A stretch of 64,000 nucleotides of DNA from an uncultured Flavobacteriaceae bacterium (GCA_963530295.1 CAUSCF010000003.1:77747-141746); one strand, 5' to 3'; shown: positions 23,645-31,475, counted from the stretch's first letter. Numbers and translations are program-made. The notes: generated by a model from the letters alone, not told the origin.

Positions 23645-25792
23645 ATGAAGAAAAAAAATAAATCACAAAAACAACAATACAAATTGGAGAGTATCGGAAG
23701 ACTCATTCTCCGATTTATGAATAAGAAAAATTCTAAAATATACAATTACAAACAGATAGCAGACGGCATAGACTACAAAAATCCGCGCCAGAGAGAACTG
23801 GTTATCCAGACTCTGCACAAACTGAGAGCCCAAGATAAAATAAAAGAAGTGGAAAAGGGCAAGTATATGGTAAACCTGCAGATAAAAGAGACGCTGACAG
23901 GAACGATAGATTTTGCGCTTAATGGAAATGCCTATGTAAGTGTGGAGGGACTGGACGAGGATATCTTCATCCATCAGAAAAATGTAAAAGATGCTTTGCA
24001 GGGCGATAAGGTCTTGATCATCACTTACAACTTCAAAGGGCGAAAGCTGGAAGGCTCTGTGTTAGAGGTTTTGGAGAGAGCCAAAGACTCTTTTGTGGGG
24101 ACATTTGAGTATGTGAAATATAAGGATTTCGGGTTTGTGATTTGTGATAAAAAGGTCATCAATACCGATATTTTCATTCCAAAATCTAAAATCAATGGAG
24201 CCAAAGACGGCGATAAAGTAGTCGTGAAGATGCTCCAATGGGACATTAATTCCAAAAACCCAGAAGGGGAAATCATCAAAGTATTAGGAAAGCCAGGCGA
24301 ACACGAAACGGAAATCCATTCCATCCTTGCCGAATATGAACTTCCCTACCATTTCCCTGAGGAAGTAGAGGATTTCGCAAATAAAATCAACCGAGAAATC
24401 ACTCCCGAAGAGCTGAAAAAAAGGAGAGATATGCGGGGGACACTCACTTTTACCATAGACCCGAAAGATGCCAAGGATTTTGATGATGCACTTTCGCTGA
24501 AAAAATTAGACAACGGAAATTGGGAAATAGGCGTACACATTGCCGATGTATCCCACTATGTGCAGCCAGGAACGCTTTTGGATGAAGAAGCATACAGCCG
24601 TGCGACTTCCGTTTATCTCGTGGATAGGGTAGTTCCCATGCTCCCAGAGATTCTCAGTAATGACCTCTGTTCGCTAAAGCCAAATGTGGATAGATACGCT
24701 TTTTCGGCGGTGTTTGAGATGAATGACAGGGCGGAGATAGTGAAACAGTGGTTTGGGCGTACAGTCATCCACTCTGACAGAAGATTCTCCTACGAAGAAG
24801 CCCAAGAGCGTATAGAAACAGGAAAAGGAGATTTGGCTGAGGAAATACTGGCATTAGACCACTTGGCGAAGATTCTCAGAAAAGATAGATTAAAGAAAGG
24901 AGCTATCGCCTTTGACCGCAGTGAGGTGAGATTTAACCTTGATGAAAATAATAATCCTATCGGAGTTTATTTTAAAATCAGTAAAGATTCTAACCACCTG
25001 ATAGAGGAGTTTATGCTGCTGGCAAACAGAAAAGTTTCCGAATATGTATCTCTTTCCAGAAAGGGCGAACCGACCCATAATACCTTTATTTATCGTATCC
25101 ACGATGACCCAGACCCAGCCAAACTGGAAGCACTGAGGGATTTCGTGCAGACACTCGGCTACAAAATGAATATTTCCAATTCCCAAAAAATAGCCGAAAG
25201 TATGAACAAACTCCTAAAAGATGTCGCAGGAAAAGGCGAGGAAAATATGGTGGAAACTTTGGCGATGAGAAGTATGAGCAAGGCAGTCTATTCTACCGAG
25301 AATATAGGGCACTACGGACTAGCATTCCCATATTATTCGCATTTTACTTCGCCTATTCGCCGTTATCCAGATTTGATGGCACATAGACTGCTCCAGCATT
25401 ATTTGGATGGTGGAAAATCGCCAAACAGAGAGGAATACGAAGAATACTGCAAACACTGCAGCGATAGGGAAAGGCTGGCTGCCAATGCAGAGCGGGACTC
25501 TATAAAATACATGCAGGTGAAGTTCATGGAAGATAAAGTAGGTCAGGATTTCACGGGGGTAATCTCGGGCGTGGCAGACTATGGTTTCTGGGTAGAAATA
25601 CCTGAAAACGGCGCCGAAGGCATGATAAAACTGAGAGACCTGATGGATGATTCCTACTTCCATGATTCGAAGGCGCATTCTATTGTCGGCACCAAGTCAG
25701 GCAAGACCTACCGCCTCGGTGATGAGATAAAAATACAAGTAGTAAAAGCCAACCTCATCCAGAAACAATTGGATTTTAAAATAGTAGAATAA
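23645..25792 (+). CDS. rnr: ribonuclease R
   Basis: 715 aa. RNB domain (DPKDAKDFDDA, HYGLAFPYYSHFTSPIRRYPD) and a C-terminal S1 domain. Confidence 0.95.
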   Translation: MKKKNKSQKQQYKLESIGRLILRFMNKKNSKIYNYKQIADGIDYKNPRQRELVIQTLHKLRAQDKIKEVEKGKYMVNLQIKETLTGTIDFALNGNAYVSVEGLDEDIFIHQKNVKDALQGDKVLIITYNFKGRKLEGSVLEVLERAKDSFVGTFEYVKYKDFGFVICDKKVINTDIFIPKSKINGAKDGDKVVVKMLQWDINSKNPEGEIIKVLGKPGEHETEIHSILAEYELPYHFPEEVEDFANKINREITPEELKKRRDMRGTLTFTIDPKDAKDFDDALSLKKLDNGNWEIGVHIADVSHYVQPGTLLDEEAYSRATSVYLVDRVVPMLPEILSNDLCSLKPNVDRYAFSAVFEMNDRAEIVKQWFGRTVIHSDRRFSYEEAQERIETGKGDLAEEILALDHLAKILRKDRLKKGAIAFDRSEVRFNLDENNNPIGVYFKISKDSNHLIEEFMLLANRKVSEYVSLSRKGEPTHNTFIYRIHDDPDPAKLEALRDFVQTLGYKMNISNSQKIAESMNKLLKDVAGKGEENMVETLAMRSMSKAVYSTENIGHYGLAFPYYSHFTSPIRRYPDLMAHRLLQHYLDGGKSPNREEYEEYCKHCSDRERLAANAERDSIKYMQVKFMEDKVGQDFTGVISGVADYGFWVEIPENGAEGMIKLRDLMDDSYFHDSKAHSIVGTKSGKTYRLGDEIKIQVVKANLIQKQLDFKIVE

Positions 25793-25800
25793 CAGCAATA

Positions 25801-25830
25801 AAAAACTCCCTTTTTTAGGGAGTTTTTTTA
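25801..25830. terminator. bidirectional terminator (rnr / array copy A)
   Basis: AAAAACTCCCT TTTTT AGGGAGTTTTTTT. Confidence 0.7.
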
Positions 25831-25832
25831 TG

Positions 25833-26729
25833 TTATTTGTTGTATTCTATTGTACGATAAGAATCGCTATTTTTATATTGTCCTGTAGCAGGATCTTTAG
25901 TTTTAAATTGTATTTTCGTAGGATAGTTGTTAGTGTTTAAAGTATATTCTACCATAGATTCTCTTGTATAATTACCATTCTGATAAGGGCTACCAGAATG
26001 ATAAAGAGTTTCGTTTATTTCTTTCTTTGCATAAGAAATAGGAAAGAATATATCATCGCTATCTTCTCCTCCAATTGCAACAGATGAATAATTAAGTTTA
26101 TCCATTCCTTTTATGTTTTCTATTAAACTATGATGATTTGCATATTGGTAAGTAGTAGTATTATTATTCGTCTTTTCAATAAGATTTCCTGTTGAGTCTC
26201 TCTCTTCAGAAACTTCTACTCTTTTTATTGGTCTTTTCTTTGCATCTAATGTGTAAGTGATGGTAGAAGTGGTTATAGAAGATAGAGTTCCGTCTCTATA
26301 ATCATAATTTTTAGATATCTTTTGTGCTGTTACAGTAGAACCATTGATAGTGTATGTTATATCATTTTCTGAAGTTTTAATAGTACCATCATAAAATTTT
26401 GTTTTTTCAGATATAAGGTTTCCATTAGAATCATAATTAAATACATAAGAACTTTCATTAGGATTATTCATAGAAGTGATTAAATCTCCTGTATAAGTGT
26501 AAATTACATCTTTGTTGTCATGAATAACTTTCATGAGCTTATTTCCATCATAACTAAAAGTAATTACTTTATCTGCTCTACCAGTTTGAGAATAGGTAGC
26601 TTTGGTTGGAAGAATTACTGTTTGGCTGATTGCAGGTGTCTGAGGTGTTGTAGGGTTTGTGTTGTCATTATCCCTGCTGCACGAAATAATCATCGCTCCC
26701 ACGAGAGCTGAAAATAAAATTTTTTTCAT
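25833..26729 (-). CDS. tandem-array lipoprotein, copy A (N-type alpha, middle type 1)
   Basis: 298 aa. MKKILFSALVGAMIISC lipobox, YD-like repeats, and the shared 152-aa C-terminal domain (one S-for-Y difference). Confidence 0.9.
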   Translation of the reverse strand: MKKILFSALVGAMIISCSRDNDNTNPTTPQTPAISQTVILPTKATYSQTGRADKVITFSYDGNKLMKVIHDNKDVIYTYTGDLITSMNNPNESSYVFNYDSNGNLISEKTKFYDGTIKTSENDITYTINGSTVTAQKISKNYDYRDGTLSSITTSTITYTLDAKKRPIKRVEVSEERDSTGNLIEKTNNNTTTYQYANHHSLIENIKGMDKLNYSSVAIGGEDSDDIFFPISYAKKEINETLYHSGSPYQNGNYTRESMVEYTLNTNNYPTKIQFKTKDPATGQYKNSDSYRTIEYNK

Positions 26730-26756
26730 TTTATATTGAATTTAAAATTAATTGAG

Positions 26757-26764
26757 CAAATATA
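26757..26764 (-). promoter_or_regulatory. candidate -7 box TATATTTG for copy A
   Basis: TAnnTTTG, about 30 nt upstream of the ATG. Confidence 0.45.
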
Positions 26765-26792
26765 AGAATAATATCTTTTACACTAAAAAGAG

Positions 26793-26819
26793 AAAACTCC
26801 CTAAAAAAGGGAGTTTTTT
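26793..26819 (-). terminator. terminator of copy B
   Basis: AACTCCC / GGGAGTT hairpin with flanking A/T runs. Confidence 0.65.
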
Positions 26820-26822
26820 GTG

Positions 26823-27722
26823 TTATTTGTTGTATTCTATTGTACGATAATAATCACTATTTTTATATTGTCCTGTAGCAGGGTCTTTAGTTTTAAATTG
26901 TATTTTCGTAGGATAGTTGTTAGTGTTTAAAGTATATTCTACCATAGATTCTCTTGTATAATTACCATTCTGATAAGGGCTACCAGAATGATAAAGAGTT
27001 TCGTTTATTTCTTTCTTTGCATAAGAAATAGGAAAGAATATATCATCGCTATCTTCTCCTCCAATTGCAACAGATGAATAATTAAGTTTATCCATTCCTT
27101 TTATGTTTTCTATTAAACTATGATGATTTGCATATTGGTAAGTAGTAGTATTATTATTCGTCTTTTCAATAAGATTTCCTGTTGAGTCTCTCTCTTCAGA
27201 AACTTCTACTCTTTTTATTGGTCTTTTCTTTGCATCTAATGTGTAAGTGATGGTAGAAGTGGTTATAGAAGATAGAGTTCCAGTTATATCATTATAATTT
27301 TTAGATATCTTTTGTGCTGTTACAGTAGAACCATTGATGGTGTATGTTGTATTTTCTTCTAAAACTTTAATAGTACCATCATAAAATTCTCCTTTTTCAG
27401 AGATAAGGTTTCCATTAGAGTCATAATTAAATACATAAGAACCTCCATCAGGATTATTCATAGAAGTGATTAAATCTCCTGTATAAGTGTAAGTTTGATC
27501 TTTGTTGTTGTCATGAGTAGCTTTCACGAGCTTATTTCCATTATAAATTAAAGTAGATACTTCATCTGCTTTACCAGTTTTAGAAGAGGTAAGTTTGGTT
27601 GGAAGAATTCTTGTTTGGCTGATTGCAGGCGCCTGAGGCGTTGTAGGATTAGTGTTGTCATTATCCCTGCTACACGAAATCATCATCGCTCCCACGAGAG
27701 CTGAAAATAAAAGTTTTTTCAT
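26823..27722 (-). CDS. tandem-array lipoprotein, copy B (N-type beta, middle type 2)
   Basis: 299 aa. Protein is identical to copy D. Confidence 0.9.
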   Translation of the reverse strand: MKKLLFSALVGAMMISCSRDNDNTNPTTPQAPAISQTRILPTKLTSSKTGKADEVSTLIYNGNKLVKATHDNNKDQTYTYTGDLITSMNNPDGGSYVFNYDSNGNLISEKGEFYDGTIKVLEENTTYTINGSTVTAQKISKNYNDITGTLSSITTSTITYTLDAKKRPIKRVEVSEERDSTGNLIEKTNNNTTTYQYANHHSLIENIKGMDKLNYSSVAIGGEDSDDIFFPISYAKKEINETLYHSGSPYQNGNYTRESMVEYTLNTNNYPTKIQFKTKDPATGQYKNSDYYRTIEYNK

Positions 27723-27749
27723 TTTATATTGAATTTAAAATTAATTGGA

Positions 27750-27757
27750 CAAAGATA
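27750..27757 (-). promoter_or_regulatory. candidate -7 box TATCTTTG for copy B
   Basis: TAnnTTTG, about 30 nt upstream of the ATG. Confidence 0.45.
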
Positions 27758-27785
27758 AGAATAATATCTTTTACACTAAAAAGAG

Positions 27786-27812
27786 AAAACTCCCTAAAAA
27801 AGGGAGTTTTTT
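27786..27812 (-). terminator. terminator of copy C
   Basis: Same AACTCCC / GGGAGTT hairpin. Confidence 0.65.
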
Positions 27813-27815
27813 GTG

Positions 27816-28712
27816 TTATTTGTTGTATTCTATTGTACGATAATAATCACTATTTTTATATTGTCCTGTAGCAGGGTCTTTAGTTTTAAATTGTATTTTC
27901 GTAGGATAGTTGTTAGTGTTTAAAGTATATTCTACCATAGATTCTCTTGTATAATTACCATTCTGATAAGGGCTACCAGAATGATAAAGAGTTTCGTTTA
28001 TTTCTTTCTTTGCATAAGAAATAGGAAAGAATATATCATCGCTATCTTCTCCTCCAATTGCAACAGATGAATAATTAAGTTTATCCATTCCTTTTATGTT
28101 TTCTATTAAACTATGATGATTTGCATATTGGTAAGTAGTAGTATTATTATTCGTCTTTTCAATAAGATTTCCTGTTGAGTCTCTCTCTTCAGAAACTTCT
28201 ACTCTTTTTATTGGTCTTTTCTTTGCATCTAATGTGTAAGTGATGGTAGAAGTGGTTATAGAAGATAGAGTTCCAGTTATATCATTATAATTTTTAGATA
28301 TCTTTTGTGCTGTTACAGTAGAACCATTGATGGTGTATGTTGTATTTTCTTCTAAAACTTTAATGGTACCACTATAAGATTCTCCTTTTTCAGAGATAAG
28401 GTTTCCATTAGAATCATAATTAAATACATAATAACTTTCATTAGGATTATTCATAGAAGTAATTAAATCTCCTGTATAAGTGTAAATTACATCTTTGTTG
28501 TCATGAATAACTTTCATGAGCTTATTTCCATCATAACTAAAAGTAATTACTTTATCTGCTCTACCAGTTTGAGAATAGGTAGCTTTGGTTGGAAGAATTA
28601 CTGTTTGGCTGATTGCAGGTGTCTGAGGTGTTGTAGGGTTTGTGTTGTCATTATCCCTGCTGCACGAAATAATCATCGCTCCCACGAGAGCTGAAAATAA
28701 AATTTTTTTCAT
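27816..28712 (-). CDS. tandem-array lipoprotein, copy C (N-type alpha, middle type 2)
   Basis: 298 aa. The N-terminal ~94 aa equal copy A. The middle block resembles copies B and D. Confidence 0.9.
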   Translation of the reverse strand: MKKILFSALVGAMIISCSRDNDNTNPTTPQTPAISQTVILPTKATYSQTGRADKVITFSYDGNKLMKVIHDNKDVIYTYTGDLITSMNNPNESYYVFNYDSNGNLISEKGESYSGTIKVLEENTTYTINGSTVTAQKISKNYNDITGTLSSITTSTITYTLDAKKRPIKRVEVSEERDSTGNLIEKTNNNTTTYQYANHHSLIENIKGMDKLNYSSVAIGGEDSDDIFFPISYAKKEINETLYHSGSPYQNGNYTRESMVEYTLNTNNYPTKIQFKTKDPATGQYKNSDYYRTIEYNK

Positions 28713-28739
28713 TTTATATTGAATTTAAAATTAATTGAG

Positions 28740-28747
28740 CAAATATA
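28740..28747 (-). promoter_or_regulatory. candidate -7 box TATATTTG for copy C
   Basis: TAnnTTTG, about 30 nt upstream of the ATG. Confidence 0.45.
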
Positions 28748-28775
28748 AGAATAATATCTTTTACACTAAAAAGAG

Positions 28776-28802
28776 AAAACTCCCTAAAAAAGGGAGTTTT
28801 TT
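28776..28802 (-). terminator. terminator of copy D
   Basis: Same hairpin. Confidence 0.65.
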
Positions 28803-28805
28803 GTG

Positions 28806-29705
28806 TTATTTGTTGTATTCTATTGTACGATAATAATCACTATTTTTATATTGTCCTGTAGCAGGGTCTTTAGTTTTAAATTGTATTTTCGTAGGATAGT
28901 TGTTAGTGTTTAAAGTATATTCTACCATAGATTCTCTTGTATAATTACCATTCTGATAAGGGCTACCAGAATGATAAAGAGTTTCGTTTATTTCTTTCTT
29001 TGCATAAGAAATAGGAAAGAATATATCATCGCTATCTTCTCCTCCAATTGCAACAGATGAATAATTAAGTTTATCCATTCCTTTTATGTTTTCTATTAAA
29101 CTATGATGATTTGCATATTGGTAAGTAGTAGTATTATTATTCGTCTTTTCAATAAGATTTCCTGTTGAGTCTCTCTCTTCAGAAACTTCTACTCTTTTTA
29201 TTGGTCTTTTCTTTGCATCTAATGTGTAAGTGATGGTAGAAGTGGTTATAGAAGATAGAGTTCCAGTTATATCATTATAATTTTTAGATATCTTTTGTGC
29301 TGTTACAGTAGAACCATTGATGGTGTATGTTGTATTTTCTTCTAAAACTTTAATAGTACCATCATAAAATTCTCCTTTTTCAGAGATAAGGTTTCCATTA
29401 GAGTCATAATTAAATACATAAGAACCTCCATCAGGATTATTCATAGAAGTGATTAAATCTCCTGTATAAGTGTAAGTTTGATCTTTGTTGTTGTCATGAG
29501 TAGCTTTCACGAGCTTATTTCCATTATAAATTAAAGTAGATACTTCATCTGCTTTACCAGTTTTAGAAGAGGTAAGTTTGGTTGGAAGAATTCTTGTTTG
29601 GCTGATTGCAGGCGCCTGAGGCGTTGTAGGATTAGTGTTGTCATTATCCCTGCTACACGAAATCATCATCGCTCCCACGAGAGCTGAAAATAAAAGTTTT
29701 TTCAT
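28806..29705 (-). CDS. tandem-array lipoprotein, copy D (identical protein to copy B)
   Basis: 299 aa, identical to copy B. Confidence 0.9.
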   Translation of the reverse strand: MKKLLFSALVGAMMISCSRDNDNTNPTTPQAPAISQTRILPTKLTSSKTGKADEVSTLIYNGNKLVKATHDNNKDQTYTYTGDLITSMNNPDGGSYVFNYDSNGNLISEKGEFYDGTIKVLEENTTYTINGSTVTAQKISKNYNDITGTLSSITTSTITYTLDAKKRPIKRVEVSEERDSTGNLIEKTNNNTTTYQYANHHSLIENIKGMDKLNYSSVAIGGEDSDDIFFPISYAKKEINETLYHSGSPYQNGNYTRESMVEYTLNTNNYPTKIQFKTKDPATGQYKNSDYYRTIEYNK

Positions 29706-29732
29706 TTTATATTGAATTTAAAATTAATTGGA

Positions 29733-29740
29733 CAAAGATA
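29733..29740 (-). promoter_or_regulatory. candidate -7 box TATCTTTG for copy D
   Basis: TAnnTTTG, about 30 nt upstream of the ATG. Confidence 0.45.
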
Positions 29741-29768
29741 AGAATAATATCTTTTACACTAAAAAGAG

Positions 29769-29795
29769 AAAACTCCCTAAAAAAGGGAGTTTTTT
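29769..29795 (-). terminator. terminator of copy E
   Basis: Same hairpin. Confidence 0.65.
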
Positions 29796-29798
29796 GTG

Positions 29799-30701
29799 TT
29801 ATTTGTTGTATTCTATTGTACGATAATAATCACTATTTTTATATTGTCCTGTAGCAGGGTCTTTAGTTTTAAATTGTATTTTCGTAGGATAGTTGTTAGT
29901 GTTTAAAGTATATTCTACCATAGATTCTCTTGTATAATTACCATTCTGATAAGGGCTACCAGAATGATAAAGAGTTTCGTTTATTTCTTTCTTTGCATAA
30001 GAAATAGGAAAGAATATATCATCGCTATCTTCTCCTCCAATTGCAACAGATGAATAATTAAGTTTATCCATTCCTTTTATGTTTTCTATTAAACTATGAT
30101 GATTTGCATATTGGTAAGTAGTAGTATTATTATTCGTCTTTTCAATAAGATTTCCTGTTGAGTCTCTCTCTTCAGAAACTTCTACTCTTTTTATTGGTCT
30201 TTTCTTTGCATCTAATGTGTAAGTGATGGTAGAAGTGGTTATAGAAGATAGAGTTCCGTCTCTATAATCATAATTTTTAGATATCTTTTGTGCTGTTACA
30301 GTAGAACCATTGATAGTGTATGTTATATCATTTTCTGAAGTTTTAGTAGAATTACTAAATCTTTTTAATTTTTCAGATGTAAGATTACCATTAGAATCAT
30401 AACCAAATTCACTAGACATTTTACTATTTATAATAGAGGTAATTAAATTTCCATTATAACTAACATTAGATACATCTCCATCATTATGTATTAGTTTTGT
30501 TAGTTTTGTTCCATTGTATATGAAGGTTATTTCTGCACTTAGTTGGTTAGATCTATCATCATAATAAGAATACTTCACAGGAAGAATTCCTATTTCACTG
30601 GTTGCGGGTTTCTGAGGCGTTGTAGGATTTGTGTTGTCATTATCTCTGCTGCACGAAATAATCATCGCTCCCACGAGAGCTGAAAATAAAAGTTTTTTCA
30701 T
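29799..30701 (-). CDS. tandem-array lipoprotein, copy E (N-type gamma, middle type 1)
   Basis: 300 aa. Unique N-terminal block. The middle block KTSENDITY...YDYRDG is identical to copy A. Confidence 0.9.
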   Translation of the reverse strand: MKKLLFSALVGAMIISCSRDNDNTNPTTPQKPATSEIGILPVKYSYYDDRSNQLSAEITFIYNGTKLTKLIHNDGDVSNVSYNGNLITSIINSKMSSEFGYDSNGNLTSEKLKRFSNSTKTSENDITYTINGSTVTAQKISKNYDYRDGTLSSITTSTITYTLDAKKRPIKRVEVSEERDSTGNLIEKTNNNTTTYQYANHHSLIENIKGMDKLNYSSVAIGGEDSDDIFFPISYAKKEINETLYHSGSPYQNGNYTRESMVEYTLNTNNYPTKIQFKTKDPATGQYKNSDYYRTIEYNK

Positions 30702-30736: not shown

Positions 30737-30797
30737 ATGATTTTCATCTAAAAATAAATTCCGTATTTTTGGAGTTTCAATTAAGAATTCGCATCCT

Positions 30798-31475
30798 ATG
30801 ATAGAGCTTATTTTTTCTGCTGTCGGTTTGGGTTTTATGCTTAGTTTGGTATTTATCGGGCCTGTTTTCTTCCTTTTGGTGGAGACCAGCCTTTCGCGAG
30901 GGCCTCGGCATGCATTGGCGCTGGATTTGGGCGTGGTTTTTGCGGATATAGTGTGTATTGTGGCGGCGTATTTCAGCAGTCAGGACATTATCCACATCAT
31001 AGACCAATACCCGAGTTTTTATAGGATTTCCGCGCTTATTATCTTTGTTTATGGGATTTATATGATCGTTTCCAAAACCAGAATGCACATCGCAGGCGAG
31101 GAAAGACTCATCAACCAAAACTATCTGAAAACTTTTCTCAATGGTTTCCTGCTCAATATTCTGAACATTGGCGTGGTGCTTTTTTGGCTGGTAACCGTCA
31201 TTTTCATTAGAAAAAACTATCCTGACACGGGCAGATTTTTGCTTTATATCGGCTTGGTTATCGGGACATATCTTTTGATAGACTTGGCGAAAATCTACTT
31301 GGCGAAACAATTTCACAATAAACTCAACCAGCAGGTAGCCAATAAAATCCGAAAAGGTGTAGGTTTTATTCTGCTGGTTCTGAGCGTGTTTATTTTCCTT
31401 CAAAGTTTCAAATCCTTTAACCAACTGGACAAAAGATTAGAAGAAAAAGGCATCAAACGAGAAGAAATAAAATAA
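30798..31475 (+). CDS. LysE/RhtB family amino-acid exporter
   Basis: 225 aa, six TM segments. N-terminal GPVFFLLVETSLSRG motif. Confidence 0.75.
   Translation: MIELIFSAVGLGFMLSLVFIGPVFFLLVETSLSRGPRHALALDLGVVFADIVCIVAAYFSSQDIIHIIDQYPSFYRISALIIFVYGIYMIVSKTRMHIAGEERLINQNYLKTFLNGFLLNILNIGVVLFWLVTVIFIRKNYPDTGRFLLYIGLVIGTYLLIDLAKIYLAKQFHNKLNQQVANKIRKGVGFILLVLSVFIFLQSFKSFNQLDKRLEEKGIKREEIK

Follow-up and report, generated by a model that had tools for sequence, protein, structure and literature searches.

The window analysed here, a stretch of 64,000 nucleotides (nt) from an uncultured Flavobacteriaceae bacterium, carries five tandem lipoprotein open reading frames (ORFs) of 298–300 amino acids (aa), all in the same orientation on the minus strand (25833–30701; all coordinates are those of the whole window unless gene positions or alignment columns are named). 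The genes, which we call A to E, repeat with a unit length of 990/993 nt, have the transcription order E-D-C-B-A, and form the sole large repeat of the 64-kb window. We consider it likely that they are a tandem paralog array diversified by ordinary homologous recombination, that is by gene conversion together with unequal crossing-over, under relaxed or diversifying selection. Comparison of the five copies with each other and with 25 syntenic loci of the same oral Flavobacteriaceae lineage, all of them metagenome assemblies, demonstrates at the level of sequence that the genes have recombined, that they are homogenised within genomes, that copy number and content vary between near-identical strains, and that the ratio of non-synonymous to synonymous substitution (dN/dS) is elevated.

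The mosaic structure is visible within the window itself. The original prediction, made from this stretch alone, had sorted the N-terminal blocks of the five proteins into three types, alpha (copies A and C), beta (B and D) and gamma (E), and their middle blocks into two, type 1 (A and E) and type 2 (B, C and D). The peptides quoted for each type are all present verbatim in the copies named. In the nucleotide alignment, A and C agree at 189 of 190 positions across columns 91–292 and B and D at 193 of 193, against 166 of 193 for A and B, and E matches the other copies at 108–117 of ~200 positions (54–58% identity). Across columns 367–450 the grouping changes, with A identical to E (84/84), B, C and D identical to each other (84/84), and A matching B at 70/84. 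Columns 451–848 are then identical in all ten pairs of copies (398/398 nt), and E shows no difference from B, C and D across the last 459 nt, though its N-terminal block differs at ~45% of positions. Three substitutions at the 3' end of copy A, on the edge of the array, are private to this copy. The reassortment that had been proposed therefore stands; the description of the N-terminal blocks as unrelated does not, since they are homologous at 54–86% nucleotide identity. Copy C adds a further element, as it reads EKGESYSG upstream of the quoted type 2 string where B and D read EKGEFYDG, and this block is evidently that of a third lineage, found widely among relatives.

The sites that are informative for quartets of copies are segregated along the gene. 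Nine of them give the split AC/BE and all lie at nt 10–236, and 16 give AE/BC and all lie at nt 330–450, without any interleaving; the third split, AB/CE, has three sites. The exact probability of so perfect a separation of 9 from 16 sites is ~1e-6, and in a permutation test of the pairwise homoplasy index (PHI) type, 0 of 10,000 permutations reached the observed value (p<1e-4). Because the two splits are both incompatible and segregated, no one tree accounts for the copies, and recombination has to be invoked. A single tree across the unit, which had been named beforehand as the outcome that speaks against a mosaic origin, is thus not what we see. The breakpoint zone between the two signals overlaps a conserved island, nt 301–330, that holds a YD motif. 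If there had been no recombination, and the copies had simply diverged after duplication with a C-terminal half under purifying selection and a fast-evolving N-terminal half, then the confinement of variation to the first ~450 nt within the window genome would be accounted for. This explanation retains next to no probability given the segregated incompatible splits, a C-terminal half that is variable in the population, and a relative (L002) with the reverse polarity, and we regard it as already refuted. The preference of the original prediction for gene conversion or unequal crossing-over over simple divergence is borne out both in the window and across the 25 related loci.

The invariance of the C-terminal half in the window is a special case. 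Diversity had been described as limited to ~115 residues with the rest of the protein frozen, and this turns out not to be a property of the system. Residue variability is spread along the whole protein in 125 close homologs, and among 55 unique array genes conservation is lowest in two stretches of the C-terminal half, nt 541–570 and 661–780. In L002 the polarity is reversed, its two copies being 100% identical at nt 1–459 and just 52–77% identical in the 3' half. Exact tracts shared by paralogs are found elsewhere again in other arrays, at nt 353–530 in L004 and at nt 354–489 and 612–900 in L018. Furthermore, the absence of any synonymous difference in 398 nt of five copies, compared with a synonymous divergence (dS) of ~1 between the N-terminal halves of E and B, argues against purifying selection alone. 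The identity of the C-terminal halves in the window is best read as the product of recent homogenisation within this genome, and not as functional conservation.

Footprints of individual events could be recognized by comparing the window with its closest relatives. Between its array and that of L025 there is not one mismatch in 1,000 nt of flank and the first 426 nt of copy 1; within copy 1 the differences are restricted to gene nt 534–594 and 673–762, and the same patches differ in copy 2. That the same patches differ in both copies indicates that each genome has been homogenised for its own variant, as is characteristic of concerted evolution. The third copies of L016, L018 and L025 have the sequence of copy C save for 12 sites at nt 130–208; there C matches copy A instead, and this A-like patch resembles the trace of a short conversion. 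From nt 196 of the gene to 300 nt into the flank, copy A is identical to the last copy of L019, whose RNase R gene is 100% identical to that of the window; the spacer and 5' end of copy A are nevertheless those of the C lineage. B and D are the same over the full gene and the upstream spacer, leaving four distinct sequences and not five. The array order in the relatives is E, B, C', a 291-aa paralog and A (L018; also L016/L017 taken with L019 to L022), and the window has a second B where these closest relatives hold the 291-aa paralog. A perfect direct repeat of 1,796 nt in the window evidently marks either a two-unit duplication or the conversion of a whole unit. By these comparisons, at least three recombination events separate arrays whose flanks are 99.7–100% identical (0–0.3% substitutions). 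We also sought a unique series of events leading from E-B-C'-F-A, with F in the place of the 291-aa paralog, to E-B-C-B-A; several two- or three-step paths of unequal crossover and conversion fit, and we claim no single history.

The related loci vary in a similar manner. In all 25 the array lies between a LysE/Peptidase_S66 flank and RNase R, with flank identities of 93–100%, and the number of copies is 1, 2, 3 or 5. A fixed arrangement of five genes in all relatives, the other finding that the original prediction had said would count against it, is not seen, as both copy number and content vary. When gene segments were clustered at 97% nucleotide identity to pair blocks, the gamma N-terminal block was found on three C-terminal halves (one in the window, L016 and L017, one in L018, L007, L011 and L023, and one in L025) and the beta block on at least six. 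Sub-blocks of the middle region reassort as well, with TSENDIT or VLEENTT combined with SPLDG, DYRDG or DDITG, and there are four-gamete violations among the block types of the 55 unique genes. Some products recur between samples: the copy E protein was recovered exactly in another sample, and a near-identical protein of the copy A type (P0016) is the last copy in five independent contigs from different samples. In total, the family has 834 detectable homologs of ~290–300 aa, more than 120 of them at ≥80% identity, and a search of 1.84 billion representative proteins gave no more than 9 clusters at E≤1e-30. The genome matches are metagenome-assembled genomes (MAGs) that carry the label uncultured Flavobacteriaceae or Riemerella. 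Among them are oral MAGs of Shaiber et al., who described an uncultivated genus found in ~98.5% of Human Microbiome Project plaque samples with genomes of 1.7–1.8 Mb (PMC7739484). In a tongue MAG (T-B-M_MAG_00001, L012) the array comprises three copies whose signal peptide, MRKIFFT..., is distinct, and in a plaque MAG (P-A-M_MAG_00002, L008) at least four copies of other types; the tongue and plaque sub-populations of Shaiber et al. may have different arrays.

Several points weigh against the interpretation that we favour. The first concerns assembly: the comparison data come throughout from metagenomes, in which such repeats are prone to mis-joining or collapse, and the 1,796-nt perfect repeat is beyond short-read resolution, so that the B/D duplicate and the A-like patch in C could include assembly error. 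Carried further, an assembler threading reads from repeats or from different strains might itself have made the five-copy order and some of the chimeras, such as the alpha block joined to type 2 or the B/D pair. The organism is indeed known from MAGs alone, many homologs lie on contigs of 1–3 kb, proteins A, B and C are on record from a single contig only, and related short-read contigs (L016 and L017) break off in the third copy after ~490 nt, where the constant, homogenised tract begins. We consider an artefact of this kind unlikely, as the E and A-type proteins recur as described above, the C-lineage unit is present in L016, L018 and L025, and recombination signals are also seen in arrays of divergent copies that assemble unambiguously (L004, L018 and L023). 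Assemblers also tend to collapse perfect tandem repeats and not to expand them, which counts against an artefact. The general conclusion that these genes recombine rests on many independent assemblies, divergent-copy arrays included. Contigs end inside the third array copy at locus positions 9486 in L016, 9486 in L017 and 9248 in L025, which are independent short-read scaffolds; the locus routinely breaks MAG assemblies, and short-read MAGs break or collapse at such arrays.

The second point is that conversion within a genome cannot be fully separated from the import of alleles from other strains. It is conceivable that the mosaics arose solely by exchange between strains, through transformation or conjugation followed by homologous recombination, with no copying between paralogs at all. 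The pool of alleles represented by the homologs counted above is very large, the conserved flanks could direct the exchange of the locus as a whole, and distant strains share block types. We find this very unlikely as the sole source, because tracts that are identical among the paralogs of one genome differ between genomes, as in the patches that distinguish the window from L025, the 398 nt of the window and nt 1–459 of L002, and tracts shared in this way require copying between paralogs. Import of alleles probably contributes in addition to such copying.

The third point concerns selection. The alpha and beta N-terminal blocks differ by 23 non-synonymous and 1 synonymous substitutions (dN/dS 7.3; binomial p=0.018), a value above 1 that rests on 24 differences in one pair of sequences. 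The pooled ratio of non-synonymous to synonymous polymorphism (pN/pS), which comes from non-independent pairs in a recombining family, is 0.57–0.87 in the C-terminal half and ~1.0 in the N-terminal and middle blocks (0.57–1.06 over the mature protein), compared to 0.17 in the signal peptide and 0.03 in the flanking RNase R gene. In addition, some copies in relatives have decayed: the first copy in the plaque MAG L008 (L008:1230-2123) has a stop at codon 2 (ATG TAA), the fifth copy of L023 is truncated to 246 aa (L023:11905-12645), and the sole copy of L014 is frameshifted (L014:8001-8869). The genes are thus dispensable and are sometimes lost, and part of the raised dN/dS may reflect relaxed constraint. 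Variable residues alternate modestly (i/i+2) along the predicted strands (p~0.05), and this periodicity, on which we do not rely, is suggestive of one variable face of a predicted sheet.

The last point concerns the location of the proteins. In all five the lipoprotein signal peptide ends in ...(I/M)ISC and the mature N-terminus is C-S-R-D-N-D-N, which does not vary among 39 diverse members of the family. The Bacteroidetes lipoprotein export signal is C-X-K-(D/E)2-X, with K-(D/E)2 or Q-A-(D/E)2 at positions +3 to +5 (PMC5080379). In the N-terminus here, position +3 is positively charged and positions +4 and +6 are acidic, with no adjacent acidic pair, and the match is therefore a partial one, R-D-N-D compared with K-(D/E)2. 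The resemblance of C-S-R-D-N-D to the export signal makes surface exposure plausible, and these are probably surface-displayed lipoproteins.

The proteins of the array were characterised by profile searches and structure prediction. The Pfam family RHS_repeat (PF05593) matches with 23–34 bits (cut-off 22) and the NCBIfam YD repeat (TIGR01643) with 15–22 bits (cut-off 15.8). In an AlphaFold2 model with a predicted local distance difference test (pLDDT) score of 83.6 and a predicted template modelling (pTM) score of 0.77, residues 1–36 form a disordered linker that is followed by 16 beta-strands arranged in hairpins. Foldseek matched this model to Rhs cores (E 2e-8) and to the Bacteroides 'porin-like' lipoproteins 3tzg (template modelling (TM) score 0.49/0.60) and 4ghb. 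Pfam searches of distant small-lipoprotein relatives gave no family other than RHS_repeat, and a profile search of PDB sequences returned marginal Rhs matches only. The proteins are, as modelled, small all-beta YD/RHS-repeat lipoproteins. They share the YD motif and the fold of beta-hairpins in a sheet with Rhs and YD-repeat proteins and with BVU_2266 (3tzg) and BACUNI_01323 (4ghb). Unlike Rhs proteins, they have ~260 structured residues and no closed shell, C-terminal toxin or Rhs core-end motif; in the model the hairpins form an open array, and TM scores normalised to the Rhs targets are 0.04–0.07.

All five copies are complete ORFs with a start codon, a signal peptide, a TAnnTTTG motif and a terminator of their own. 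We take the motif to be the -7 promoter consensus of Bacteroidetes; it sits 35 nt before the ATG in every copy, E included, and all four 93-nt spacers carry a terminator-like hairpin. The promoter-proximal part of the spacer co-varies with the N-terminal block downstream of it. From the promoter-like motif and terminator of each copy, every copy would be an independently transcribed gene. The term cassettes, which the original prediction used for the units, overstates the case, as every copy is a complete gene and we find no silent donors, no recombinase among the annotated neighbours and, within the 64-kb window, neither inverted repeats of at least 60 nt nor a further copy of the array repeat. 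These observations also bear on programmed antigenic variation, whether by an expression site with silent cassettes, a site-specific recombinase or shufflon, or a diversity-generating retroelement. A tandem array of putative surface lipoproteins in a host-associated bacterium, with high variation and dN/dS above 1, would suit such a system, which we nonetheless hold to be very improbable in light of the five complete, individually equipped ORFs, the lack of such inverted repeats, and tract positions that vary by genome. Moreover, the neighbours annotated by Pfam in relatives have housekeeping functions and include no recombinase (annotation of the window covered part of its ORFs), and the substitutions between alpha and beta hit all four bases and not adenines only. 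It is possible, though doubtful, that this is a true contingency locus, in which segmental conversion among five co-expressed genes would yield surface variants within one human host during colonisation, in a never-cultured Flavobacteriaceae with a reduced genome that is found in nearly all human mouths; bearing on this is the finding that three or more such exchanges distinguish strains with 99.7–100% identical flanks. In Bacteroidota, variation of the surface is otherwise put down chiefly to invertible promoters and site-specific recombinases.

We return to a tandem array that recombines by ordinary means, for which we propose the following mechanism. General RecA-type homologous recombination among the direct repeats would build the mosaics. 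Non-reciprocal gene conversion would copy tracts of ~80–550 nt, or whole units, from one paralog to another, and unequal crossing-over would alter the copy number. Exchanges would begin and end in short conserved islands, namely the signal-peptide region, the YD cores at ~nt 301–330, 391–420 and 481–510, and the spacer. In the window genome, one variant of the C-terminal half has spread to all five copies by concerted evolution, and the N-terminal halves are still distinct, with some reshuffling. Variants would be maintained in the population by relaxed or diversifying selection acting on the mature protein. Within this scheme we infer the dependence on RecA, the exposure at the surface, the rate of exchange and the agent of selection, which may be host antibody, phage or competitors.

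Several known systems resemble this array in part. Borrelia vlsE, Neisseria pilE/pilS, Mycoplasma genitalium MgPa and Anaplasma msp2 have one expression site, promoterless donors and high-frequency switching. The present array shares with them the segmental, non-reciprocal copying between homologous sequences that gives mosaic surface proteins, and differs in that every copy is a whole gene with a terminator of its own. Of the known systems, the nearest is the lpl cluster of Staphylococcus aureus, a tandem cluster of lipoprotein-like paralogs in the nuSa-alpha island (Tsuru & Kobayashi 2008, PMC2568036). Both loci consist of lipoprotein paralogs in tandem and in the same orientation, with incongruent histories of the 5' and 3' parts of the ORFs, recombination at conserved internal sequence, differences between strains in copy number and content, and a presumed role in host interaction. 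In contrast to the DUF576 Lpl proteins, those described here are YD/RHS-repeat beta-sheet proteins of a Gram-negative member of the Bacteroidota, and long, perfectly homogenised tracts are prominent in their array. No homology to Lpl proteins was detected, Pfam and NCBIfam giving only the RHS/YD repeat. We also considered a recombining unit of the lpl type that spans two adjacent genes and rejected it, as the adjusted mutual information (AMI) between segments S3/S4 of gene i and S0/S1 of gene i+1 is 0.24–0.29, below the 0.61–0.83 found within genes between adjacent variable blocks S1–S4. Within the same family as traditionally defined, Flavobacterium psychrophilum has a tandem leucine-rich repeat (LRR) locus with up to 19 putative surface repeat-protein genes and signatures of modularity and recombination, and an adhesion or phage-receptor role is suggested for its products (PMC10392669, citing Duchaud 2007). 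Modular recombination there is comparable; its LRR proteins vary in internal repeat number, whereas the array here encodes YD-type hairpins at a fixed length (288–305 aa) and exchanges gene segments, not internal repeat modules.

The features of the locus are collected in Table 1. The array has a G+C content of 29.8%, against 35.7% for the window. Hairpins of the form AAAAAACTCCC-loop-GGGAGTTTTTT, at 25800–25828 and in the four spacers, are flanked by runs of A and T and score as terminators on both strands; the hairpin that follows copy A could in addition serve the convergent RNase R gene as a terminator. Tandem Repeats Finder gave no report, its period limit of 500 nt being shorter than the 990/993-nt unit, and we used find_repeats and scripts of our own. 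No tRNA, tmRNA or Rfam family was detected across the 64-kb window (Rfam, ARAGORN). A 215-aa ORF with a TTG start (30777–31424, minus strand) is antisense to the LysE-family gene (30798–31475, plus strand). This antisense ORF, which has no Pfam match, is called in L017, L023 and L025, and LysE (PF01810) is called at the same place in L016, L018 and L024; the antisense call is probably a gene-calling artefact. Likewise, two identical 63-aa ORFs at 26520–26711 and 28503–28694 on the plus strand, antisense to the alpha blocks of A and C, are most likely spurious and duplicated only through the underlying repeat.

Table 1 Features of the lipoprotein array and its flanks, in window coordinates
Feature	Position	Strand	Description
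RNase R	23645-25792	+	Downstream flank of the array, kept in all relatives
Copy A	25833-26729	-	298 aa; alpha N-terminal block and type 1 middle block; last gene, adjoins RNase R
Homogenised tract, copy A	25882-26279	-	398 nt
Type 1 middle block, copy A	26292-26375	-	Columns 367-450; 84/84 identical to E, 70/84 to B, C and D
Breakpoint zone, copy A	26412-26503	-	Columns 236-330, between the AC/BE and AE/BC signals
Perfect direct repeat, first copy	26479-28274	.	1,796 nt; partner offset 1983
Copy B	26823-27722	-	299 aa; beta and type 2
Copy C	27816-28712	-	298 aa; alpha and type 2-like
Breakpoint zone, copy C	28395-28486	-	Equivalent of the copy A zone
Perfect direct repeat, second copy	28462-30257	.	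1,796 nt
Copy D	28806-29705	-	299 aa; beta and type 2
Copy E	29799-30701	-	300 aa; gamma and type 1; first gene of the array
Homogenised tracts, copies B to E	26823-27281 (B), 27816-28274 (C), 28806-29264 (D), 29799-30257 (E)	-	398-459 nt, identical
Spacers (n=4)	26730-26822, 27723-27815, 28713-28805, 29706-29798	-	93 nt each; terminator-like hairpin, then TAnnTTTG
LysE-family exporter gene	30798-31475	+	Conserved upstream flank of the array

Recombining surface arrays are well known, and this one, which has not been described before for the present organism or protein family, adds a case to a known phenomenon and not a new mechanism. It also carries the lesson that a 'constant domain' seen in one genome can be an artefact of concerted evolution. 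The interest of the locus comes mainly from the organism, which is among the most prevalent uncultivated bacteria of the human mouth. Families that are hypervariable, recombine fast and are probably exposed at the surface usually mark the interface of a bacterium with antibodies, phages or neighbouring cells. The locus could serve as a marker for strain typing and transmission and as a first target for functional work.

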